IMG/VR virus record: IMGVR_UViG_2648501165_000018
Span: 1-9,137 of that record
DNA: 9,137 nt
DNA from: a virus
Lineage: Duplodnaviria; Heunggongvirae; Uroviricota; Caudoviricetes
Strand: one strand, 5' to 3'
Under the pieces are notes generated by a model. That model was not told the DNA's origin, searched no databases, and worked only from the letters and a program-made list of their open reading frames with translations. The position numbers and the translations under genes were made by a program. Of the stretch, positions 1-9,137 are shown piece after piece (within the stretch, counting starts at the first letter, position 1; each line of letters begins with the position of its first letter).

Positions 1-528
1 ATGCTAAATGTAAGGTTTGATTCAGAAAAGGCTTTAGAGGCCATTCTGTACGTCGCCTCTAAAGCACCGATCCCAGATATCTATCATGTCGGAAAAATTC
101 TTTATTATGCTGACAGGTTTCACCTTGAAAGTTTTGGACGCCTCATAACGGGCGATCACTATAACGCTATGAAGGATGGGCCTGTAGCAAGCAACACATA
201 CGATATTATAAAAATTGCTCGTGGAAATGGACGTTACATTCCTAATGGTTGTGATGTCGATTCTGTGCGAAAAGCATTTTCTGTATCAGGTATGACGATT
301 GTGCCGAGCCGTGAAGCTGATGAAGACTTTTTTAGTGACTCAGATTTAGAGTGTATTGATAAGTCTATCGCGATGCTTGGAAACATGTCCTTTGAAGCTA
401 TCAGAACCATGAGCCATGACGCGGCATGGGAACAGGCAGATCACAATGGTGAGATGTCTTTGGAATCGATAGTTGCACAGCTAAAAAATAGCAAATTAAT
501 ACTGGATTATCTGAAGAACGGATATTGA
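1..528 (+). CDS. Panacea-domain (DUF4065, SocA/PanA-like) protein, putative antitoxin or immunity component
   Basis: 175-aa ORF starting at the first base of the window, so the true start may lie upstream. The N-terminal half (…KALEAILYVASKAP…YHVGKILYYADRFHLESFGRLITGDHYNAMKDGPVASNTYDIIK) matches my recollection of the DUF4065/Panacea signature (KLxKLLYyAd…HL…g.pl…Y.A…GPV…Y). Stop TGA at 526-528 lies 5 nt before the first ATG of the next ORF. Family assignment is from memory, not from an HMM search. Confidence 0.6.
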   Translation: MLNVRFDSEKALEAILYVASKAPIPDIYHVGKILYYADRFHLESFGRLITGDHYNAMKDGPVASNTYDIIKIARGNGRYIPNGCDVDSVRKAFSVSGMTIVPSREADEDFFSDSDLECIDKSIAMLGNMSFEAIRTMSHDAAWEQADHNGEMSLESIVAQLKNSKLILDYLKNGY

Positions 529-533
529 TACTT

Positions 534-995
534 ATGCTGGGTGATTGTTTCCCTCCTGATTTTAAGGCTAATTTTAGTCGTGAAAGAGGTATATCACCCG
601 GTGATGTATTGTATCTTCATTGTGATTTTACGACCCCACCTAAAGTAAAATATATGGTGGTTGTTTGCTGTGAACCTCTTTTAGTTCTTCTAATAAATTC
701 AGATATAAATGAATTTATTAAGAGAAACAATGATCTTATGGCTTGTCAGGTCGAAATTAATAGAGAGGACCATGATTTTCTTAAATGGGACTCATTTGTT
801 AATTGCATTGAGGCTCATGCTGCTTTCGATCTTGAAATTATTAAAGAGAAAATAGCCATCCAATATGGTGACGTGCTAAAAGGTCGCATTACAGATCATT
901 GTATGAGACAAGTTCGATGTGCAGTTGAGATATCTAAAACTATGGTTAAACGGCATAAAAAACTGATACTCGCTGCTCTTCAACATTATGAATAA
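534..995 (+). CDS. hypothetical protein, candidate toxin/effector partner of the Panacea-domain gene
   Basis: ORF track gives 525..995 with a TTG start that overlaps the upstream stop; the first ATG is at 534 (MLGDCFPP…, 153 aa). No strong Shine-Dalgarno, consistent with translational coupling. Visibly AT-richer than the phage genes to its right. No catalytic motif recognised. Followed immediately by a hairpin terminator. Confidence 0.5.
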   Translation: MLGDCFPPDFKANFSRERGISPGDVLYLHCDFTTPPKVKYMVVVCCEPLLVLLINSDINEFIKRNNDLMACQVEINREDHDFLKWDSFVNCIEAHAAFDLEIIKEKIAIQYGDVLKGRITDHCMRQVRCAVEISKTMVKRHKKLILAALQHYE

Positions 996-1015
996 ACCCA
1001 TCTTTGGATGGGTTT
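994..1015. terminator. bidirectional intrinsic terminator between convergent operons
   Basis: Perfect 9-bp inverted repeat AAACCCATC (994-1002) / GATGGGTTT (1007-1015) with a TTTG loop. It is followed by TTTATTCAT on the plus strand and by an equivalent U-rich run on the minus strand. It sits between the stop of the + ORF (993-995) and the stop of the minus-strand PrtN-like ORF (1029-1031). Confidence 0.5.
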
Positions 1016-1028
1016 ATTCATATTCTAT

Positions 1029-1301
1029 TTAAATGAGCCTTTGTTTATGGGTTCTGACCCTTTCCCACTCAGCACGCCCTTCTTCTCGCCTTTTGTCTAT
1101 GTATTCCGCAAGATCCTGAATATTGATGCAACGTTTTGCTTTTTGTGATGTGCCGATGCGATATGTTGGAACGGGCAACTTACAAGCGTTTGCTTTTGCT
1201 TCTGCCGTGGCTGGACTCATGCCAAAGTACTTTTGGCTAACTGCTGAGAGTTCAATGTTAGGGGTATTGAATTCAGCCATCAGTAAAAACAAGGTGTTCA
1301 T
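1029..1301 (-). CDS. PrtN-like (pyocin-activator family) small DNA-binding protein
   Basis: The ORF track's 99-aa version begins at a GTG (1328). I prefer the ATG at 1301 (MNTLFLLMAEFNTPNIELSAVSQKYFGMSPATAEAKANACKLPVPTYRIG…), which is preceded by GGAGA 5 nt upstream; an ATG at 1313 is an alternative. Sequence resembles the PyocinActivator/PrtN family as I recall it. Last gene of the minus-strand operon. Confidence 0.5.
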   Translation of the reverse strand: MNTLFLLMAEFNTPNIELSAVSQKYFGMSPATAEAKANACKLPVPTYRIGTSQKAKRCINIQDLAEYIDKRREEGRAEWERVRTHKQRLI

Positions 1302-1337
1302 AATTTTCTCCATCAAAACCGGCTGCACCCGGGAAAA

Positions 1338-1910
1338 TCATAATTCTGTGCTGGTGGCAGGAATTAGTTTCTGCCAGATAGCGGAAACATATTTTGCCTG
1401 ATGACGGGCATCAGCCAGGGCGTTGTGCCGTTCGCCATCGAAAGGCATGTCCATTTTTGGGTCGAATCCGATGGAACGCCCAAGCGTAACGATCGTGCGT
1501 ACATCGTGGTCATTCCAGTACGCCCACGGGCAGATTTGTCCTGCTCGCTCGTAAGCTCCACGTAAAATTACGTTGTCGAAGGTGGCCCCGTTACCCCAGA
1601 CTTTTAAATATTTTGTATTGTCTGCATGCTGATTAATGAAATGGCTCAGTTCAGAGAGTGCATCGCTGATCGACAAAGTATCATCAATACAGATTGCAGC
1701 TCGTGCTTCAGAGCTCTGTTTCAACCACCACAGGATGGTATCGCCGTCAGGTGTAGCTCCTTGCCCCATAGCACTTTCCAGGCTAACAACCGTATAGAAT
1801 TCTTGTCCGATGTCTCCGGTTTCTGGAGTGAAGAACACCGCGCCAATGGAAACGATCGGTGCATCCTTATTTTTCCCCATCGTCTCAAGGTCGATCATTA
1901 AGTTATTCAT
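1338..1910 (-). CDS. DEDDh-type 3'-5' exonuclease (DnaQ-like fold)
   Basis: 190 aa. N-terminal MIDLETMG carries the Exo I D-x-E motif and HNALADARH near the C-terminus carries the Exo III H-x4-D motif. SD GGAGGTGA lies 5 nt upstream of the ATG at 1910. The start overlaps the upstream stop by 1 nt (TAATG). Confidence 0.7.
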   Translation of the reverse strand: MNNLMIDLETMGKNKDAPIVSIGAVFFTPETGDIGQEFYTVVSLESAMGQGATPDGDTILWWLKQSSEARAAICIDDTLSISDALSELSHFINQHADNTKYLKVWGNGATFDNVILRGAYERAGQICPWAYWNDHDVRTIVTLGRSIGFDPKMDMPFDGERHNALADARHQAKYVSAIWQKLIPATSTEL

Positions 1911-2221
1911 TACTTCACCTCCTGCGTTTCTTTGCTGCTGTGAATTCGCCAGTTACCGACGCCTTCCCATTCAAACTGGCGGTTACTAATTCGCGTCCAG
2001 CCCCTGCCGAAAAGCAAATCCAGATACCAGTATTTTAAAGTTCTGATAATTGCTCTTACAGTTGGTTTGCATCCAGAAGTCTTTGATGCGCAAATAAAGC
2101 ACCGAGTTATGCTCATGGCTTCTACAAAAGGCCAGATAAACCAAACCCAGATGCAAAGAGCCACGAACAACATGAGCGCGATGTTAGCCACTAAGCCAGA
2201 CCAGTACAGATAATTGCTCAT
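1910..2221 (-). CDS. hypothetical small membrane protein with Cys cluster
   Basis: 103 aa. A hydrophobic N-terminal segment (LVANIALMLFVALCIWVWFIWPFV) predicts one transmembrane helix, followed by CFICASKTSGCKP. The start at 2221 overlaps the upstream stop (ATGA-type junction). Confidence 0.5.
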   Translation of the reverse strand: MSNYLYWSGLVANIALMLFVALCIWVWFIWPFVEAMSITRCFICASKTSGCKPTVRAIIRTLKYWYLDLLFGRGWTRISNRQFEWEGVGNWRIHSSKETQEVK

Positions 2222-2601
2222 TGGTTGCCTCCACCTTGGCTCTGAAGCATGGCAGCGCGGCAGGCGTTCCAGCCATCAACATACCCAGCCATGATATATC
2301 GATTAAAACCCACCTCTTTCTGTGCGCGTGCCAGATTCATTTCCTCCGGCACGTGTACTGGCTGAGCTATATATAGCGGCTGAACATACCAACCCTTTGA
2401 TAACCAACTGTCAGCAACGTTTTTACTCCGTGTTATTGCCGGAATACCTAAGCCATTGTCTGAATGCAGCCATGCCACCGGTTCTGCTTCCAGCGATGCC
2501 AGCGTAATCCGTGCAAGTTCCATTTGTTCACCACGGGTAAGCCCGTTTTCAAGCGGATTTTTAATGAATAATTCGATACGTTCTTTGGTAATAGAATTCA
2601 T
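2218..2601 (-). CDS. hypothetical phage protein
   Basis: 127 aa. The ATG at 2601 is preceded by AAGGTG 7 nt upstream and lies 1 nt after the upstream stop (TAG C ATG). No domain recognised. Confidence 0.5.
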   Translation of the reverse strand: MNSITKERIELFIKNPLENGLTRGEQMELARITLASLEAEPVAWLHSDNGLGIPAITRSKNVADSWLSKGWYVQPLYIAQPVHVPEEMNLARAQKEVGFNRYIMAGYVDGWNACRAAMLQSQGGGNQ

Positions 2602-2602
2602 G

Positions 2603-2794
2603 CTATTTCACCTTAATCTCAACATTTCGCAGCTTTATGTCTACTGGTAGGTCTGACTTTCCTGTTAACGCTAATGCGAGATTTTCAGGAGTAATGAGAG
2701 CAGTTATTGTTTTCCCCATCGCCAGACGAATAATCATTCGTATCTCGCGATCGTCACATGCTCCCGGTCGAACAATTGAGATTTGTCCGTTCAT
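2603..2794 (-). CDS. hypothetical small phage protein (63 aa)
   Basis: ORF track gives 2603..2824 with a TTG start. The ATG at 2794 (MNGQISIVRPG…) has a strong SD AAGGAGAG 6 nt upstream and lies 1 nt after the upstream TGA, so I take 2794 as the start. Confidence 0.45.
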   Translation of the reverse strand: MNGQISIVRPGACDDREIRMIIRLAMGKTITALITPENLALALTGKSDLPVDIKLRNVEIKVK

Positions 2795-2795
2795 C

Positions 2796-3383
2796 TCACT
2801 CTCCTTTGATGCGAATGCCAGCAAGCCAGTTTCTTATGCCGATATATTCAGCGTTCCTGAAACCGCTTTTTACATATATAAATGGCAAGCGAAGATTGTG
2901 ACCGTTGGCTGCCAGGTAGTCTTTACAACCCTGTTCGGTGAAACAGCAGGTAACGAATTCATCAATATCTTTCACAGCAACGCGCCGCCATTTTTCTGGT
3001 GGTTCCCGAAAGTTTTCATGAAGTAGTTCGAGACGACGACTTTGGAGTTTATTGGCTTCATTGCCATCTTCATCAACCCAGACAATCCGGTCATAGTCAT
3101 AATCAGCATCAACAACAATTTCGCGCTTTTGATACACACAAAACATAGGGTCTGACGTTATTCGATTATCCTGTGTTCGAATATTTTCACCGATGATGCC
3201 AAACGAATCTGGCGTAGGTTTTGTCTGTAACTCTTCGATACGTTCAGCCAGCGCCGCGCACTTGGCCTCAGCTTCAGCAAATTTACGCACCAGGTACTCA
3301 GCGTTTGTTTCGTTCACTTTCAGATCTCGCGGTACACATTTCCCGCGAAGAAACCCTTCCATTTCGAAAACATTCATGCGCAT
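2796..3383 (-). CDS. hypothetical phage protein with N-terminal coiled-coil-like segment
   Basis: 195 aa from the ATG at 3383. An alternative ATG at 3377 forms an ATGA overlap with the stop of the upstream HD-domain gene. The N-terminus contains a helical, charged stretch (AEAEAKCAALAERIEELQ) and the C-terminus is acidic (DADYDYDRIVWVDEDGNE). No family recognised. Confidence 0.55.
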   Translation of the reverse strand: MRMNVFEMEGFLRGKCVPRDLKVNETNAEYLVRKFAEAEAKCAALAERIEELQTKPTPDSFGIIGENIRTQDNRITSDPMFCVYQKREIVVDADYDYDRIVWVDEDGNEANKLQSRRLELLHENFREPPEKWRRVAVKDIDEFVTCCFTEQGCKDYLAANGHNLRLPFIYVKSGFRNAEYIGIRNWLAGIRIKGE

Positions 3384-3910
3384 TTGCGTAACCCCGATAA
3401 CTCGTTAAAACGTTCCATAAACATCCCGTAGGCATGGCCTGGTGACAGTGGAATAACTTTGAACATCTCTGTCGCCGGGATACCTTCCAGTACAGGCCAG
3501 AAAGAGCCATCATCAAGCCCGAGATCGCGGCGTTCGGTTGCCAGCATAATGAGATCGGCATATTTCACAGGCGTGCTCATAACCGGGGGTAACCCGTATT
3601 TCTCACGGATTACGGCGTCTATTTTTTCTTCCATCCGTTTATAGTCAGGAAGAAGGCGTTTCAGTGGCGCGGGGATGTCCTGGCAATACGCTTCTGTTGC
3701 ATCATGCATTAACGCTTCAAAAGCAAATTCCTGTGGCACCAGCTGGCTGCAAAGCACCGCATGTTGGGCGACGCTGTAGAAGTGTGAAAGATGTCCTGCA
3801 AAGCGACAGATATTTGAAAGGGAAACCGCGATATCGTTAATCACGATGTCGTCTTTATTTATCCTGTCATAATAAAAATGCTTCCCGGAAAAAGTTTTAA
3901 TAAATGACAT
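3374..3910 (-). CDS. yfdR: HD-domain phosphohydrolase, YfdR-like (5'-deoxynucleotidase family)
   Basis: ORF track starts at a GTG (3940). The ATG at 3910 (MSFIKTFSG…) has SD GGAGAA 4-5 nt upstream and gives 178 aa. HD-domain signature residues are present (…ICRFAGH…, …LMHDATEAY…). Length and synteny with a 274-aa and a 120-aa gene match the yfdP-yfdQ-yfdR block of the E. coli CPS-53 prophage as I recall it; the symbol is assigned from recalled length, synteny and motif, not from alignment. Confidence 0.65.
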   Translation of the reverse strand: MSFIKTFSGKHFYYDRINKDDIVINDIAVSLSNICRFAGHLSHFYSVAQHAVLCSQLVPQEFAFEALMHDATEAYCQDIPAPLKRLLPDYKRMEEKIDAVIREKYGLPPVMSTPVKYADLIMLATERRDLGLDDGSFWPVLEGIPATEMFKVIPLSPGHAYGMFMERFNELSGLRKCA

Positions 3911-4003
3911 TTTGTTCTCCACGTAAATGTGTTGCACCACGCTGAATTCTGGTAAAAGGAAGCCCTCACCATCCGGTGATTATTGAGTTAATTACGTTTC
4001 CAT

Positions 4004-4025
4004 AAATGCCCCCGCAGGGGCATTT
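4004..4025 (-). other. intercistronic RNA hairpin between the yfdQ-like and yfdR-like genes
   Basis: AAATGCCCC (4004-4012) / GGGGCATTT (4017-4025) forms a 9-bp stem with a 4-nt loop, 13 nt downstream of the yfdQ-like stop. The downstream sequence on the minus strand is only moderately U-rich, so it is more likely a stability/processing hairpin or weak attenuator than a strong terminator. It lies in an unusually long (127-bp) spacer in an otherwise overlapping operon. Confidence 0.3.
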
Positions 4026-4037
4026 GCAGTAATGAAA

Positions 4038-4862
4038 TCAGGCGGTGAAAGTACCAATAAAGGTTTCTACTTTGCTGTCTTTGAATTTCTCAACAAGCAG
4101 ATCACGAAATTCGTTAGCCATTTCCTCCTGCACTGCTTCCAGCTGAATAATGCGCAGAACCAGTACAGGACGATCGCCAGTGATAATGCTGAGGCGTAAT
4201 TTAAACGGACGTTCTTTCAGGCCTTCAAACGGAACGCATTTGAATTCAAATGCCACTGGCATAATGTCTTTGGTTTTCGCTTCGACAGACTCCATCAGGG
4301 AGCGTTTGCCGCTGAAGTCATTGTCTTCAAAATCAGCGGTCTGGTTTGCTTCAATCGTGATTTTACGGACTGCCGCAGCTGCTTTTGTTGCCTGAATAGC
4401 GTCACCATTAGCATCAAAGCCCACAAGGTAGTCCGCCCAGTCTTCAATCCATTCTGCCAGTGACTTCTGGGAGTTACGCTCGCCATTAACAGACAACAGA
4501 GCAGAGAACGGTGCTGTCTTTTTCAGTTTGAGAGTGGCGGTGTTATCTGCGTGGCCTGGTTCATCAATAGTACCAAGATTAAGCACACTGACAGCACGCA
4601 TATTATCAGCATCGATAAAGCAGCGGGTGCCTTCATCTGCAAGATCTTTAGAATAACGGGTAAAGTCATCGATGCTGGCAGTGGAAAGCGCACCACGGAA
4701 ACGGAAGCGATTTAAATTAAATTTTTCCAGATCATGAATGCGGAAATTCTCAGGCAATGCCACAGCATCAGCACCAATCTTACTGATAATTTCATTAACA
4801 CCCTGAGCAGAAATAAGGGCATGGATTTGATTAATTGCAGTTGCGTCTAAGTTCTGAGACAT
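4038..4862 (-). CDS. yfdQ: YfdQ-like protein (DUF2303 family), function unknown
   Basis: 274 aa. The ATG at 4862 has SD GAGGA 6 nt upstream. Length and position between the YfdP-like and YfdR-like genes match the CPS-53 yfdP-yfdQ-yfdR arrangement. Assignment is by recollection, not alignment. Confidence 0.6.
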
Positions 4863-4927
4863 AATAAGTCCTCACTATATAAAGATATTCAGTGATGAGA
4901 TAAAAAATCAGTTTATTAAGAACGATA

Positions 4928-5290
4928 TTAACGACCTGCTGCGCGGAGTTTTCCGTCAGGTTCACCGGCAAGAGTCAGTAATTGTCCCTGGTCTTCCTGC
5001 AGAATAGTCAGACGACCACCGCGATTGACATACATCGGCGTTTCGGTGGTGTCTTCTTCGGAAATTTTCCCGCGGTTAGTCGGGCGAACATATGAGAGTT
5101 TGTGTTTGATTTTCACACGGTTCTCATCAAATGGTTCGATTTCCAGGTTGAGTGAGACCTTACCTTTGGTTTTCGTGTTCATCACACCGGAAGCGACTTC
5201 ACTGAGAACTGCGCCGATTTTGGTTTCAAATACGCCGCCGTCCAGCTCCCCGATAAATGCCTGCACATCAGTACTGCGTTCGCTAGCCAT
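4928..5290 (-). CDS. YfdP-like hypothetical phage protein (120 aa), first gene of the early-left operon
   Basis: ORF track extends to a TTG at 5476 and runs through a terminator hairpin. The ATG at 5290 (MASERSTDVQAFIGELDGG…) has SD GAGGAG 6-8 nt upstream and gives 120 aa, the length I recall for YfdP. Confidence 0.55.
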   Translation of the reverse strand: MASERSTDVQAFIGELDGGVFETKIGAVLSEVASGVMNTKTKGKVSLNLEIEPFDENRVKIKHKLSYVRPTNRGKISEEDTTETPMYVNRGGRLTILQEDQGQLLTLAGEPDGKLRAAGR

Positions 5291-5338
5291 TTTGCTGCTC
5301 CTCATCATATCGACCCTGCAAGGTCGGTTGGTTTCTCC

Positions 5339-5427
5339 ACAAAACAGAGAAGAACACCTGCGGTGGCAGCCGCCCGGATGGATTGGGTTATGAGCCCGTC
5401 GTCCGGTGATGCTCTTCTCTGTTTTGT
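5339..5427. repeat. 89-bp element bounded by perfect 15-bp inverted repeats (ACAAAACAGAGAAGA … TCTTCTCTGTTTTGT)
   Basis: Positions 5339-5353 are the exact reverse complement of 5413-5427. The 59-bp interior is GC-rich and holds further short palindromes (CCGGA…TCCGG, GCGG…CCGC). It lies in the untranslated leader just upstream of the YfdP-like RBS and directly downstream (on the minus strand) of the terminator U-tract. Confidence 0.6.
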
Positions 5428-5434
5428 AAAAAGA

Positions 5435-5473
5435 GCGGTACCAGCCGGAAGCAAGTGTACAAACTGGTACCGC
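5435..5473 (-). terminator. intrinsic terminator in the early-left leader
   Basis: 10-bp GC-rich stem GCGGTACCAG (5435-5444) / CTGGTACCGC (5464-5473) with a 19-nt loop. On the minus strand the 3' arm is followed directly by TCTTTTTAC (reverse complement of 5426-5434). Confidence 0.5.
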
Positions 5474-5904
5474 CAAAGCAGTGGCTGTTGTGGTGATCGG
5501 TGATGATCTCCGGCTTGCGGTTATTTCAGACTCTCACGGGCATTTAATTGCCCCGCCGAACAGCTCTTTTCCGCAATAGCTGCAATGTCTTTCGCGCATC
5601 AGCCTGCGCATTCACCACAACGCTGAGAGCACTTAGCCAGTTACGGCACCACACTTTGTCGCGGTTCCATAAATGCCCTCATAGTTGCACCCTGGTCTCT
5701 TCCCAGGCGTCAAACCGAATCGCCACGCTGGTTAGGCGTCTTATCAGCATCATCATTGACTTGCACATTCCGGCTACCTGGTTTGTTTGCCCGAGCAAGG
5801 AGTGGATTGTCCCCTTTAACGTCCCCAGACCGCTAACGACGCATGTGCCATACGCCGTGTTACAACCAAATTTTGTTAGTACCTTGTTTGTTGGTCTGGA
5901 AAGA

Positions 5905-5957
5905 AAGATAAAATGAAGTTGCGCATTATGCAAGTATTTTTGTTGCGAGATATGCAA
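5905..5957 (-). promoter_or_regulatory. candidate OL operators and PL-like leftward promoter
   Basis: Two copies of a 15-bp motif TTGCG-N3-TATGCAA (5919-5933 TTGCGCATTATGCAA; 5943-5957 TTGCGAGATATGCAA), centres 24 bp apart. The same motif with one mismatch occurs in the cI/cro intergenic region. On the minus strand a -35 TTGCAT (5928-5933) and a -10 TATCTT (5905-5910) are 17 bp apart and overlap the first site. Promoter assignment is by eye only. Confidence 0.35.
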
Positions 5958-5974
5958 TTTGATGGGTAATGAAA

Positions 5975-5992
5975 AGCCACCTTCGGGTGGCT
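5975..5992 (-). terminator. intrinsic terminator downstream of the cI-like repressor gene
   Basis: AGCCACC (5975-5981) / TTCG loop / GGTGGCT (5986-5992), 20 nt after the cI stop. On the minus strand it is followed by TTTCATTAC. Confidence 0.5.
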
Positions 5993-6012
5993 AATTGATG
6001 AGGAGGTAAGGG

Positions 6013-6705
6013 TTAATTGTGTCGCTTAAGGGTTTGTGACTGGCTGATTAAGACCTTTCCAAAGACCATAAACCGGTGTTCATTTTCGCTGGTAATTCCC
6101 CATTCACGATAAATCTGGTTATCAGAAATCACCAGTAGTTTGTCAGGTATCATTTGCAGTCGTTTGACATAAATTTTATCATCAAAACCAAATACATAGA
6201 TACCATCTCCATCAAACTGATTGATACTGACATCAACGAAGATGAGATCTCCTGGCTCAATGGTTGGACACATACTGTCCCCACGAACGTTGATAACTTT
6301 AATGTGATTTGCTGGCCGTCCGCCAAACATCGATACAGCATTATCAGTTCTGTATTCAATGGCATGAATCACATCAATGACATCTCCGCCCTGGATAAGG
6401 CCATTTCCCGCACTGGCACTGATATCCAGCATTTCAATACGGAATACATCCTTCACCTGCGCAATATCCTCACTAATACTGTTTTTACATACAGTATTAC
6501 TTTTGAAGTCTGAGGTAAAGAGATCAGCAATATCAACACCTAAGCTCCTGGCAATATTACTCAGGGCTTGTTCAGTGAATTGTTTCTGCTTACCTGTTTC
6601 GAGGCGCGAGATATTCGCCGCATCCACTCCTATTGCTTCAGCGAGATCGGCGATTTTCATGTTCTTCGCCTGGCGAAGTTGTCTGACTCGATTTCCTATG
6701 TTCAT
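6013..6705 (-). CDS. CI-like prophage repressor (HTH-XRE N-terminal domain + S24 LexA-like autopeptidase domain)
   Basis: 230 aa. N-terminal HTH (VRQLRQAKNMKIADLAEAIGVDAANISRLETGK). C-terminal S24 signature with the catalytic Ser in RGDSMCPTIEPGDLIFVD and the Lys in IYVKRL, plus an Ala-Gly candidate cleavage site (SASAGNG). Divergent from the Cro-like gene. The -10-like TGTAAT ends 6 nt before the ATG, suggesting a leaderless or short-leader mRNA as with lambda PRM. Confidence 0.8.
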   Translation of the reverse strand: MNIGNRVRQLRQAKNMKIADLAEAIGVDAANISRLETGKQKQFTEQALSNIARSLGVDIADLFTSDFKSNTVCKNSISEDIAQVKDVFRIEMLDISASAGNGLIQGGDVIDVIHAIEYRTDNAVSMFGGRPANHIKVINVRGDSMCPTIEPGDLIFVDVSINQFDGDGIYVFGFDDKIYVKRLQMIPDKLLVISDNQIYREWGITSENEHRFMVFGKVLISQSQTLKRHN

Positions 6706-6802
6706 GCGTTTATTACATTTCTTTATTGCGCGTTAAGCAAATCAACTTGCGCAAAATATTTGCGTGAAATAATATGCTCATCACGCAATATGTGGAGGTT
6801 AT
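6706..6802. promoter_or_regulatory. divergent immunity control region (OR-like operators, PRM-like and PR-like promoters)
   Basis: Operator-like sites: TTGCGCGTTAAGCAA (6726-6740), the palindromic TTGCGCAA (6747-6754), and the inverted repeat TTGCGTGA (6760-6767) / TCACGCAA (6781-6788). Rightward candidate promoter: -35 TTGCGC (6747-6752), 17-bp spacer, -10 TAATAT (6770-6775). Leftward candidate promoter: -35 TTGCTT (6735-6740 on minus), 17-bp spacer, -10 TGTAAT (6712-6717 on minus). SD GGAGG (6794-6798) precedes the cro-like ATG at 6803. Confidence 0.45.
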
Positions 6803-7063
6803 ATGCAATCACCATTACGGAATGTGCGTAAGGCGCACGGATTTACTTTGCAGCATGTTGCTGCGGGCGTTCAGGTCAATCCAGCGACGCTGAGTCGTAT
6901 TGAAAGACTGGAACAAATTCCATCTATCGAGCTTGCAGAACGTCTGGCCAATTTTTTTAAGGGAGAAATCAGCGAAATGCAGATTCTCTATCCTGCACGC
7001 TTTCAATCTAGTCAAAACCGGAATGAGTTAAAACCACAGGAACAGGAGGTAAGCCGTGGGTAA
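6803..7063 (+). CDS. Cro-like HTH-XRE transcriptional regulator
   Basis: 86 aa. HTH (LRNVRKAHGFTLQHVAAGVQVNPATLSRIERLE). First gene rightward of the repressor, preceded by GGAGG. Confidence 0.7.
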   Translation: MQSPLRNVRKAHGFTLQHVAAGVQVNPATLSRIERLEQIPSIELAERLANFFKGEISEMQILYPARFQSSQNRNELKPQEQEVSRG

Positions 7064-7607
7064 GCATCACTGGAAAGTGGAAAAACAGCCTGAGTGGTAC
7101 GTGAAAGCTGTCAGAAAAACTATCGCGGCGTTGCCGGGGGGTTACGCTGAAGCTGCTGAGTGGCTGGATGTAACAGAGAACGCTTTATTCAACCGCCTTC
7201 GTGCCGATGGCGATCAGTTTTTTCCGTTGGGATGGGCAATGGTTTTACAGCGTGCGGCTGGTACTCACCACATTGCGGATGCTGTCGCACAGTCTGCTGG
7301 TGGGGTGTTTGTATCACTTCCAGAAATTGAGGAAGTAGAGAACGCCGATATAAACCAGCGCCTGCTGGAAGTCATCGAACAGATCGGGAGTTACTCAAAG
7401 CAGATTCGTTCGGCAATCGAAGATGGGGTAGTGGAGCCACACGAGCAGACAGCAATTAATGATGAGTTGTATCTGTCAATTTCGAAGCTCCAGGAGCATG
7501 CAGCACTGGTCTACAAAATCTTCTGCGCTCCAGAAAAGAGTAACGCCCGCGAGTGTGCAGCTCCGGGCGTCGTGGCGTTTTGTGTCTGTGGAGAAACTAA
7601 CGCATGA
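7056..7607 (+). CDS. CII-like phage regulatory protein (186-CII/CP76-type, positional CII equivalent)
   Basis: 183 aa. GTG start at 7056 with a strong SD AGGAGGT (7044-7050) 5 nt upstream; overlaps the cro-like stop by 8 nt. Putative HTH GGYAEAAEWLDVTENALFNRLRADGDQ, followed by a …FFPLGWAMVLQRAAGTHHIADAVAQ… segment reminiscent of the phage 186 CII family as I recall it. Same position as cII in lambdoid layouts. Confidence 0.55.
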   Translation: MGKHHWKVEKQPEWYVKAVRKTIAALPGGYAEAAEWLDVTENALFNRLRADGDQFFPLGWAMVLQRAAGTHHIADAVAQSAGGVFVSLPEIEEVENADINQRLLEVIEQIGSYSKQIRSAIEDGVVEPHEQTAINDELYLSISKLQEHAALVYKIFCAPEKSNARECAAPGVVAFCVCGETNA

Positions 7608-8764
7608 ACAGTTTAACGGCAAATAACCGTTTGTCGCAACAGCTGGTGGTCAGTGTCGCTGCACACCTGTTGTTACGGCATGAATGCAGATTACCAAATC
7701 ACCTGGCTGTAAGTAACCACAGAGAACTTTACCTGACTGTGGGGGGCGAGTTGTGCAGGAACTTAACCGCTGGTTTCGTGACGGAAGAGGACTTTATGTT
7801 CATGTTATTCGTTGGGAGCCAGAAACACAGCGCGTTATCTATCTTCGCAAAGACTACCCGCATGAGTGCTTTAGTCCTTTGTGGAAATTCAGGCGTGATT
7901 TTGTTGAGTGTGAAGGACCACCAGCATATTGATTCTGCAATTCCGGGACGTTACACTGTTCAGGCACCTTATAAAGCGGGTGCCGGGATTGGCGTCCTGA
8001 AATTGTCAACGGCGATGTATGACGCGCCAGCGTCTTTTTTATCGTCCGCATTTGCTCACATCCAGATTATGGTGGGCTGGGCGGGGGCACCGAAAGGTGC
8101 GCCGGTCTCCGTTGACGCCGGTTACGCCAACCCCGTCCAGTTCACCACCAGTGAAATTGGCGTTTCCGGTGGTGGAAGTTTTTCACTGTCAACGGAGGCT
8201 GCCATCATGGCTACGATCCAAGCCCTCACTCAACCTGAAATCACCATTGACAACGGCCAGGCCGTTACCACTTCTTTGGCTGTTGCCAACTTCTTCTCCA
8301 AGCGTCACGACGATGTGCTGAAAAAGATCCGCACTCTGGATTGTTCCCCTGAGTTTTGTGCCCGCAATTTTGCGGAGACATCGATTTCGGTAAATCAACC
8401 GAACGGTGGTACACGCAAGCTCCCTTGCTATCAAATCACACGAGACGGTTTTGCGTTTCTTGCTATGGGTTTCACGGGTAAACGTGCTGCCCGGTTCAAA
8501 GAGGCATACATCAATGCCTTTAACCAGATGGAAAAACTGCTTTCAAAGCCATCCACGCTGAGCGATGCCGCAGATAACGCCAGCGTGCTTTACTCCCACC
8601 TGTCGGTAATCCACAAGGTCTGGCTGCAGCAGCTTTATCCTATGTTGGCAAAAGCTGAATCTCCGCTGGCTGTTAGCTTATATGATTATATTAATGATGC
8701 TTCGGCGCTGGCCTGCCTCATAAATTTGTCGCTGAACCCTTCAGAGGTAAGGGGGCGCAAATGA
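7604..8764 (+). CDS. Rha-domain phage regulatory protein (antirepressor-like); N-terminal extent uncertain
   Basis: The C-terminal ~185 aa (from the ATG at 8207, MATIQALTQPEITIDNGQAVTTSLAVANFFSKRHDDVLKKIRTL…ITRDGFAFLAMGFTGKRAARFKEAYINAFNQME) matches the Rha family as I recall it, and that ATG has a strong SD GGAGG 8 nt upstream. The frame is nevertheless open back to the ATG at 7604, which forms an ATGA junction with the CII-like gene; codon usage and the R/P/S-rich shadow frame argue that at least 8019-8206 is coding in this frame. The reported span is the full open frame. 8207..8764 is the conservative core. Confidence 0.5.
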   Translation: MNSLTANNRLSQQLVVSVAAHLLLRHECRLPNHLAVSNHRELYLTVGGELCRNLTAGFVTEEDFMFMLFVGSQKHSALSIFAKTTRMSALVLCGNSGVILLSVKDHQHIDSAIPGRYTVQAPYKAGAGIGVLKLSTAMYDAPASFLSSAFAHIQIMVGWAGAPKGAPVSVDAGYANPVQFTTSEIGVSGGGSFSLSTEAAIMATIQALTQPEITIDNGQAVTTSLAVANFFSKRHDDVLKKIRTLDCSPEFCARNFAETSISVNQPNGGTRKLPCYQITRDGFAFLAMGFTGKRAARFKEAYINAFNQMEKLLSKPSTLSDAADNASVLYSHLSVIHKVWLQQLYPMLAKAESPLAVSLYDYINDASALACLINLSLNPSEVRGRK

Positions 8765-8985
8765 TCCGGAATATTTTCAAACGGTTTACCAATCAGACTT
8801 TCCGTTGTCCTCGTCCGGGTCAGTGGTACACCACACCTGCAGGGCATGTTCTACGTGTTAGCCTGGTTGACCGTGAATGTCAGAAGGTGATTTGTGAACC
8901 GCTTGGCCGTAATTACCGCGTCAGTATGCCGCTTATAGCCTTTCGCTCCGGAAAAAACATGAAGCATCTCGGAGGTGCAGCATGA
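8761..8985 (+). CDS. hypothetical small phage protein (74 aa)
   Basis: ATGA overlap with the Rha ORF stop at 8761-8764 and a second ATGA overlap with the next gene's start at 8982-8985. Basic, Cys-containing (RCPRPGQW…RECQKVICEP). No domain recognised. Confidence 0.45.
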   Translation: MIRNIFKRFTNQTFRCPRPGQWYTTPAGHVLRVSLVDRECQKVICEPLGRNYRVSMPLIAFRSGKNMKHLGGAA

Positions 8986-9137
8986 GTATGGAGCTGATGG
9001 TTAAAGCGATGAAAATTCGAGTGGGTAATCCATTGCGAAAACTGGTTCTGATCAAGCTGGCTGATAATGCCAGCGATCAGGGTGAGTGCTGGCCCAGCTA
9101 CCAGCATATTGAACCGCCCCGGGTTTCCTGGAGAGTA
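8982..9137 (+). CDS. phage replication-initiation-type protein, N-terminal HTH fragment (truncated by window end)
   Basis: ATG at 8982 with SD GGAGG (8971-8975) 6 nt upstream. MSMELMVKAMKIRVGNPLRKLVLIKLADNASDQGECWPSYQHI… resembles the N-terminal winged-HTH of phage replication proteins (the …KLVLLALADHANDDGECFPS… pattern). Runs off the end of the window. Confidence 0.5.
   Translation, partial: MSMELMVKAMKIRVGNPLRKLVLIKLADNASDQGECWPSYQHIEPPRVSWRV

Follow-up and report, generated by a model that had tools for sequence, protein, structure and literature searches.

The 9,137-bp stretch of DNA analysed here (hereafter the window; positions 1 to 9,137 of IMG/VR record IMGVR_UViG_2648501165_000018, a virus of the Caudoviricetes) carries an immunity region in which a 15-bp motif is repeated on both sides of a cI-like repressor gene, and these sites are very probably the operators of a lambda-type lysis/lysogeny switch of an experimentally uncharacterised group, represented by mEp460, SfII, PhiR63_1 and some Stx2a phages. 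The original prediction had reported the motif, as TTGCG-N3-TAWGCAA, twice downstream of cI and once between cI and cro, and had read it as the OL and OR operators of a CI-like repressor. The observation is confirmed, since each of the three copies was found where it had been placed, and the interpretation is supported by the fixed positions of the sites in 30 repressor clades, by invariant arms around variable centres, and by a motif that tracks the recognition helix of the repressor. There are no other exact copies in the window, where 0.01 would be expected by chance, and a number of three was reached by none of 200 dinucleotide-preserving shuffles. The copies are real, but the N3-TAW form proved to be specific to the window, the form shared by the family being TTGCG-N5-CGCAA. 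A looser pattern (TTGC-N7-GCAA, with one mismatch allowed) is not enriched across the window (5 seen and 7 expected), and the significance thus rests on the full motif and on its positions.

For a comparison with other prophages, 237 loci encoding relatives of the repressor were reduced to 30 representatives with less than 95% mutual identity, which are 66-100% identical to the cI product of the window. In each representative a span of approximately 1.24 kb, made up of cI with the 400 nt upstream of it and the 150 nt that follow its stop codon, was scanned for TTGCG-N5-CGCAA, accepting at most one mismatch in the ten arm positions. The same sites recur throughout: the matches are concentrated at six fixed positions (Table 1), and only two fall elsewhere, of which one is inside the 690-nt cI genes. 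The symmetrised consensus of the family is a perfect 15-bp palindrome, TTGCGTAATACGCAA; its arms hardly change, and its centre varies while being rich in A/T. In the information profile of the 30 clades the arms are conserved, the -10 blocks are conserved at a fixed spacing, and the spacers are variable. The spacing between OL1 and OL2 is 22-24 bp across the clades, and the variation in OL2 is confined to its central bases.

The distinction between arms and centres is also found among close relatives. A population sample of 84 loci, with repressors at least 95% identical to that of the window, comprises 68 distinct module sequences (hereafter alleles). In these, only 4 of the 36 arm columns of the four full intergenic sites are variable, compared with 18 of the 24 central columns of the same sites (six per site; Fisher p = 8.5e-7), and with 68 of 169 other non-coding columns when the 24 central ones are included (Fisher p = 9e-4). 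The arms of OL1 are invariant, and the variable arm columns number 0/9 in OR3 and 1/9 in OR1. A free centre between conserved outer arms is the classic mark of an operator bound by a dimeric helix-turn-helix (HTH) protein. We also observed that OL (5900-6012) is far more polymorphic than OR (6706-6802), with 59 and 31 distinct sequences, respectively, in 91 loci (near-identical prophages, L011-L090), and that the OL1-OL2 spacer undergoes one-base length changes among near-identical prophages, giving a spacing of 23-24 bp. At one locus, from a Pseudescherichia metagenome-assembled genome (L007), a perfect TTGCGTAACGCGCAA lies 927 nt upstream of the cI start, far from the usual positions; this locus has no recognisable cro open reading frame (ORF) and no OL sites, and is possibly a rearranged or decaying prophage.

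The motif follows the recognition helix of the repressor. This helix is almost invariant in the 30 representatives, as D(A/G/S)AN(I/V)SR(L/V/M)ETGKQK, while the rest of the repressor diverges, and all clades that have it keep TTGCG-N5-CGCAA. Helix and motif are retained together in Salmonella 118970_sal3 (83% identity), Klebsiella phage 1 LV-2017 (71%) and Escherichia phage Eeyore (67%). In Cronobacter phage ENT47670, with a repressor of 50% identity and the helix DVGNLSRLERGMQ, the corresponding places read ATGCG-N5-CGCAT. The repeats of phages Turner and BTP1, in which the repressor is 43% identical and the helices are unrelated, bear no relation to the motif. The cryptic prophage e14 of E. 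coli K-12 shows the same gene order (YmfK / YmfT (CroE) / YmfL), and its CII-like YmfL is homologous to the CII-like protein of the window, the gene for which is named ymfL by the NCBI Prokaryotic Genome Annotation Pipeline (PGAP) in matching genomes. Its membership of the same immunity group was nevertheless rejected, as YmfK is only 24% identical over 170 residues and is flanked by GGTACA-type repeats. Since e14 shares YmfL but neither the repressor nor the repeats, the motif follows the cI/cro pair and not the neighbouring genes.

A weight matrix built from the sites of the relatives and applied to the window places the five proposed full sites at the top of its ranking, with 19.8 bits for OL1, 19.1 for OL2, 13.8 for OR3, 11.8 for OR1 and 10.2 for a site inside cro (see below), the next-best match having 7.9 bits; the maxima obtained in shuffled sequences have a median of 5.9 bits and a 95th percentile of 13.0 bits.

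The arrangement of the sites is that of the lambda OL-cI-OR-cro module, the same palindromic site being present in the cI/cro intergenic region and beyond the 3' end of cI. The three-plus-three operator count of lambda was not found: OL comprises two sites, both here and across the family, and OR has two full sites and a half-site in the window. The number of operators varies among lambdoid phages, so that this count does not exclude a lambdoid kind. The OR2 half-site lies within the universal palindrome TTGCGCAA (6747-6754). TTGCGCAAGT is near-invariant in all 30 clades, and the middle site of the family is a 15-mer that ends in this palindrome. An everted 15-bp palindrome, CGCAAAATATTTGCG (6750-6764), was considered as a candidate for OR2 and rejected, because it is specific to the clade of the window; it stands at the centre of an imperfect 32+32-nt dyad, centred on 6757, that takes in the whole OR. 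The OR1 position is occupied in the clades mostly by a near-perfect palindrome, TTGCGTAATACGCAT.

An inverted repeat, TTGCGTGA (6760-6767), N13, TCACGCAA (6781-6788), had also been described as part of the operator region. It is present and does overlap the best rightward promoter candidate, but it does not hold as a functional unit, since SfII and the Citrobacter relatives L003-L005 retain no more of it than the 5-nt cores. It is better read as a clade-specific half-site combined with the outer arm of OR1. This half-site is kept in the window, in SfII, in L003-L005 and in the 68 near-identical alleles, and is absent from most other clades.

The site list of the original prediction was correct for the three exact copies, but it lacked a further conserved site located inside cro. 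The sequence of this site, GTGCGTAAGGCGCAC, is the sole TGCG-N5-CGCA of the window; it departs from the consensus at its two outermost bases and has an intact core. Allowing one mismatch, it is present in 27 of the 30 clades, in nine of them as a perfect match. In cro, codons 8-12 encode V/L-R-K-A/S-H/Q, and the codons that coincide with the arms are strongly biased: Leu8 is TTG in 24/24 cases, whereas TTG makes up 16% of the remaining Leu codons of these genes (at Leu5, TTA is used in 23/27); Arg9 is CGN in 27/27, against a background of 65% (the neighbouring Arg6 is AGR in 19/27); Ser11 is TCG in 25/25, against 9%; and Ala11 is GCG in 2/2, against 15%. The N5 centre takes in the last base of codon 9, the whole of codon 10 and the initial base of codon 11, and these vary freely. 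The codon bias at the operator arms, together with the free choice in the centre, argues for a constraint at the DNA level. The evidence leans, if modestly, towards a real protein-binding site, and we would give even chances to the more specific proposal of a fourth conserved operator in the first 40 nt of cro, at a fixed 50 bp from OR1, where the bound repressor would cooperate with OR1 or block elongation from PR.

For this site only, it is an appreciable, though lesser, possibility that the conservation derives from the amino acids of Cro (L/V-R-K-S/A-H/Q, in HTH helix 1) or from an mRNA hairpin. The site is coding, the RNA of the window can fold here into a hairpin of moderate stability (-8.2 kcal/mol, z -1.95), and in the clade of the window the outer bases have changed symmetrically (T..A to G..C), with pairing kept. 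Codons 10-14 of cI are palindromic too (CTTCGCCTGGCGAAG, plus strand, 6664-6678) and are made of similar L-R-x-A-K codons, which indicates that coding alone can suffice. However, synonymous choices are fixed at the arms and free between them, and the arms are equal to the operator sequence rather than to any pairing-competent sequence. Moreover, when read in the sense of cro, the outermost bases are mismatched (U.U or U.C) in 17 of the 27 clades with the site, and the cI palindrome, with its TTCG arms, is unlike the operator and was not picked up by the scan. This last palindrome comprises 15 bp, with 7-nt arms around a central base, arises in the window from L-R-Q-A-K codons and reads CTT CGN ... 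GCG AAG in most relatives; it is probably a by-product of coding, though it mirrors the position of the cro-internal site.

We consider it unlikely that the sites serve a binder other than CI, which could be Cro alone, the CII-like protein of the YmfL family or a host factor. In favour of this, TTGC-N6-TTGC is the site bound by lambda CII, the neighbouring gene is CII-like, and the middle of OR superficially resembles boxes of the LacI/PurR type (ACGCAAA...TTTGCG). However, the motif co-varies with the cI/cro module and not with the cII-like gene, as e14 illustrates, and the sites are inverted and not direct repeats. A PurR/LacI-type box in the middle of OR was rejected, as the 6+3+6 spacing is unlike the 16-bp PurR box. 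In addition, the boundary of mosaicism keeps OL together with cI (see below). Binding of Cro at the same sites is part of the proposal of CI operators, and not an alternative to it.

Three hexamer pairs with 17-nt spacers are conserved in the alignment of the clades, each taking the TTG of its -35 element from an operator arm, and from this conservation they are regarded as the putative promoters PL, PRM and PR. In PL, 28 clade representatives keep the TATCTT block at a distance of 17 nt from the operator arm, and the sequence to the left of this block is mosaic; OL1 covers the -35 element and the spacer, and OL2 lies 24 bp upstream. In PRM, the TGTAAT block and its spacing to the operator and to the ATG are near-invariant in the 30 clades. 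As PRM ends six nt before the ATG of cI, and no Shine-Dalgarno sequence was found upstream of cI in the window sequence, the predicted start of transcription coincides with, or adjoins, the A of the ATG (6705), and the cI mRNA would be leaderless, as for lambda PRM. The hexamers of PR and their 17-nt spacing are conserved in the 30 clades, and the sequence of the spacer varies.

The use of operator arms as -35 elements raises the possibility that the TTGC blocks reflect promoter architecture only, as the -35 elements of PL, PRM and PR, and that the palindromes are incidental. Three sites of the window also share their orientation, with TTGCAT or TTGCTT on the minus strand. This explanation is nonetheless very improbable, since the TTGC arm is no more invariant than the promoter-distal CGCAA arm, both arms are kept in OL2 and in the cro-internal site without a promoter at the right distance, and OR1 overlaps a -10 element and start site, not a -35 element. 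The consensus, furthermore, is a perfect 15-bp palindrome with a W-rich centre, as would fit a dimeric HTH protein. That a short word of mixed AT/GC composition recurs by chance, to which the lack of enrichment of the looser patterns might point, is effectively refuted by the number of exact copies and by their presence at the same positions in 30 diverged clades.

Several points weigh against the assignment of the sites as operators of this switch. No binding, footprinting or transcription-start data for the repressor or its close relatives were found in GenBank annotations or in the searchable literature. The clades share descent, and counts over them are not independent. The training sites of the weight matrix were picked by arm match, which makes the arm weights circular, and the scores of OR1 and of the cro-internal site individually fall within the range of the shuffle maxima. 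In the window OR2 is only a half-site. None of PL, PRM and PR was called by a generic sigma-70 consensus scan, because their -35 hexamers match at 3/6 positions (TTG only), so that the promoter calls rest on conservation. Finally, the N-terminal domain of CI and Cro gave no alignment by BLASTP, nor was any overall similarity detected by it, which reduces the argument of a shared helix (ATLSRIE in Cro, ANISRLE in CI) to a local resemblance; on the basis of lambdoid precedent and of this short resemblance, CI and Cro probably share the sites.

In the mechanism that we propose, CI, with its 434-type HTH and LexA-like S24 domains, would most likely bind as a dimer to the 15-bp consensus sites, with TTGCG as half-site, and the Cro-like HTH protein would probably bind the same sites. 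CI dimers at OL1/OL2 and OR1, plus OR2, would occlude the -35 elements or start sites of PL and PR, keeping early lytic transcription off. Occupation of OR3, by CI at high levels or by Cro, would occlude the -35 element of PRM and turn cI off. RecA-stimulated cleavage of CI at Ala99-Gly100 would relieve repression and lead to prophage induction. The cro-internal site probably adds cooperative or roadblock repression of PR: a repressor bound there might, speculatively, form a short loop or an extended oligomer with OR1, or act as a roadblock to PR transcripts. In this scheme we infer the identity of the binder, the order of affinities, the promoter starts, the looping between OL and OR (~0.8 kb) and the activation of PRM.

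Table 1. Proposed operator sites, putative promoters and genes of the immunity region (window coordinates; position relative to cI is from its start codon unless given as past the stop codon; matches are clades among the 30 representatives)
Feature	Position	Strand	Position relative to cI	Clades with match	Sequence and remarks
OL1, PL-proximal	5919..5933		+70..80 past stop	27/30	TTGCGCATTATGCAA, exact motif copy; minus-strand arm TTGCAT (5933..5928) is the putative PL -35
OL2, PL-distal	5943..5957		+48..57 past stop	23/30	TTGCGAGATATGCAA, exact motif copy; 24 bp centre to centre from OL1
OR3, cI-proximal	6726..6740		-35	30/30	TTGCGCGTTAAGCAA, exact motif copy; overlaps PRM -35 and spacer
OR2 position, middle	6747..6761		-56	14/30	half-site TTGCG here, right arm TATTT; coincides with PR -35
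Extra TTGCG half-site	6760..6764				clade-specific; left arm of the TTGCGTGA-N13-TCACGCAA repeat
OR1, cro-proximal	6774..6788		-83	28/30	ATGCTCATCACGCAA, reverse strand TTGCGTGATGAGCAT; overlaps PR -10 end and predicted start
cro-internal operator-like palindrome	6824..6838		-133/-134	27/30	GTGCGTAAGGCGCAC; cro codons 8-12; 50 bp from OR1 centre
PL (putative)	5933..5905	-			-35 TTGCAT (5933..5928), 17 nt, -10 TATCTT (5910..5905); predicted start ~5898
PRM (putative)	6740..6712	-			-35 TTGCTT (6740..6735, OR3 arm), 17 nt, -10 TGTAAT (6717..6712)
PR (putative)	6747-6775	+			-35 TTGCGC (6747-6752), 17 nt, -10 TAATAT (6770-6775); predicted start ~6782
cro ribosome-binding site	6794-6798	+			GGAGG
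Intrinsic terminator of cI transcript	5992..5975	-			between cI and OL; from terminator scan
cI-like repressor	6705..6013	-			230 aa; HTH_3 N-terminal and Peptidase_S24 C-terminal domains (Pfam)
cro-like gene	6803..7063	+			86 aa; HTH_3 (Pfam); divergent from cI; annotated Cro in PhiR63_1 and SfII
CII-like gene	7056..7607	+			Phage_CP76 / CII family (Pfam); follows cro

The assignments of cI and cro in the original prediction agree with the Pfam domains, and the gene order is cI (HTH_3 and S24), divergent cro (HTH_3) and then the CII-like gene. In the repressor, HTH_3 matches residues 7-62 (E = 1e-10) and Peptidase_S24 residues 104-218 (E = 6.5e-19). A candidate autocleavage site, Ala99-Gly100, is present in the linker, together with Ser144 in GDSM and Lys181 in VKR, so that the repressor should be cleavable in a RecA-dependent manner, as judged from the LexA/lambda CI family. 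At the sequence level it therefore has the features of a lambdoid CI-type repressor, namely HTH and S24 domains, an Ala-Gly site and a Ser/Lys dyad. It is 97-99.6% identical to the cI products of PhiR63_1, 1720a-02 and Stx2a_WGPS2. A sequence search of the PDB with the repressor gave no close solved relative and only distant matches, to the engineered 434-type dh434 (E = 2e-4), SinR and ClgR, and to UmuD for the C-terminal domain. The terminator of the cI transcript has an RNA fold of -11.8 kcal/mol (z -4.1); a hairpin and T-run are found at this position in all relatives, and the SfII record carries a terminator annotation there.

The window represents an E. coli lambdoid prophage with immunity of the mEp460/SfII type. 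Its immunity region is 100% identical to that of a prophage of E. coli strain UTAK-1, 96.5-98% identical to those of PhiR63_1, mEp460, phiSTEC1575-Stx2k, 1720a-02 and two Stx2a phages, and ~90% identical to that of Shigella phage SfII. At least 80% of the segment 5477-7060 is carried by 673 of 5,426 complete E. coli genomes (~12%). Shigella SfII and some Stx2a-converting phages have the region too, and prophages of Salmonella, Citrobacter and Klebsiella have related versions of it. The part from 5477 to 5877 alone is shared with many other prophages, which have other immunity modules, and with some plasmids of ~95-102 kb. Homology of the SfII type starts at ~5830-5855, and phages of this type share only what lies to the right of ~5850. 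A mosaic joint is thus observed at ~5830-5880, directly downstream of the predicted PL start; its location just to the left of PL implies that the OL sites travel with cI.

To the left of this joint, no N-like ORF is evident between PL and a minus-strand terminator hairpin at 5476..5425. The segment from 5429 to ~5621 matches the 193-nt sRNA-17 of E. coli K1 RS218, which was mapped by rapid amplification of cDNA ends (RACE), is repressed by ArcA and lies within an mEp460-like prophage (PMC7719688). The hairpin (-21.2 kcal/mol, z -3.9, followed by TCTTTTT) ends the sRNA-17 stretch, and as it is a minus-strand terminator, the sRNA-17-like RNA is probably co-directional with PL, starting ~275 nt downstream of it. 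In many relatives, whatever their immunity type, PL is followed by a conserved leader, CAGCGAACAGGCAGGA(C/A)GCCCACGAAGTAGCC, which is not present in the window, where the left arm is different. This leader was seen in L091, L093, L009 and many representatives, at about 2640-2675 in e14 (L097) and at 2450-2475 in SfII (L001); it may be an element, at the RNA or DNA level, that early-left transcripts have in common.

To the right of the CII-like gene, a 386-aa ORF (7604..8764, plus strand) is annotated as 'Rha' in mEp460, although the Pfam domain Phage_pRha begins only at residue 222. Within this ORF two Rfam matches reach the gathering level, isrK at 7964-8040 (62 bits) and C4 antisense RNA at 8065-8152 (81 bits), and an in-frame ATG at 8208 is preceded by GGAGG. 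The segment 7964-8152 looks like an RNA-controlled antirepressor module of the P1 immI / Gifsy isrK type, and the ORF is probably made up of two RNA genes and a shorter Rha/Ant coding sequence. If so, this isrK/C4-type module would provide a second regulatory layer 1.2 kb to the right of OR.

Altogether, the comparisons give good support to an ordinary lambda-type switch with a new operator specificity, in which the conserved cro-internal site is the one unexpected feature. The inspected database records carry no operator annotation (SfII annotates the terminator only), and no published operator for this immunity group was found in the searchable literature, older descriptions of SfV/ST64B being not fully excluded. 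The consensus and the map of sites make immunity groups predictable from sequence, indicating which prophages should be homo-immune, including toxin-converting ones, and provide exact targets for footprinting and reporter assays. The cro-internal site is a directly testable case of regulatory DNA constraining codon choice; if real, this constraint fixes three codon choices of Cro across clades with repressors that are only 66-75% identical to that of the window.

With lambda, whose features used for this comparison are well established, the module shares the divergent cI and cro with a multi-site OR, an OL located beyond cI at a putative leftward early promoter, and operators predicted to overlap PR, PL and PRM. 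The spacing of sites (~21-27 bp), the predicted leaderless cI mRNA, the S24 repressor (Ala-Gly, Ser, Lys) and the CII-like gene after cro are also lambda-like. In contrast, the operators of lambda have 17 bp (TATCACCGC...) and not the 15 bp of TTGCG-N5-CGCAA, and its OL has three sites instead of two. Here cI abuts OL and rexAB is absent, and the distance between OL and OR is ~0.8 kb, compared with 2.3 kb in lambda. The DNA-binding domains of CI and Cro belong to HTH_3 (434/P22-like) and are not of the lambda type. Also unlike lambda, OR2 is degenerate in the window, OR3 contains a recognisable TTG for the -35 element of PRM, the region downstream of PL shows no N-like gene, and there is an extra site in cro.

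The CI and Cro DNA-binding domains are of the same fold class as those of 434 and P22, whose operators are short palindromes (14-18 bp) in which the outer arms are conserved and the A/T-rich centre is not contacted, matching the difference between arms and centre described above. There is, however, no significant sequence relationship beyond the fold (E about 1e-4), and the operator sequence differs from those of 434 (ACAA-N6-TTGT) and P22.

As for the site inside cro, an OD-like element is not known in lambdoid coliphages. In the lactococcal phage TP901-1, OD is a site within mor, the analogue of cro, downstream of the lytic promoter, and supports binding that is cooperative or looped, which makes it the closest known precedent for the site at 6824-6838. 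The CI of TP901-1 has three operators, OR, OL and OD (PMC7250872). It is reported to be a hexamer and to have no S24 domain (PMC7250872; PMC4941734), and this phage comes from a different host phylum and has no sequence relationship to the present system. In the family of the window, an operator-like site lies inside the cro-like gene, only 50 bp from OR1, and appears to be conserved beyond coding needs.

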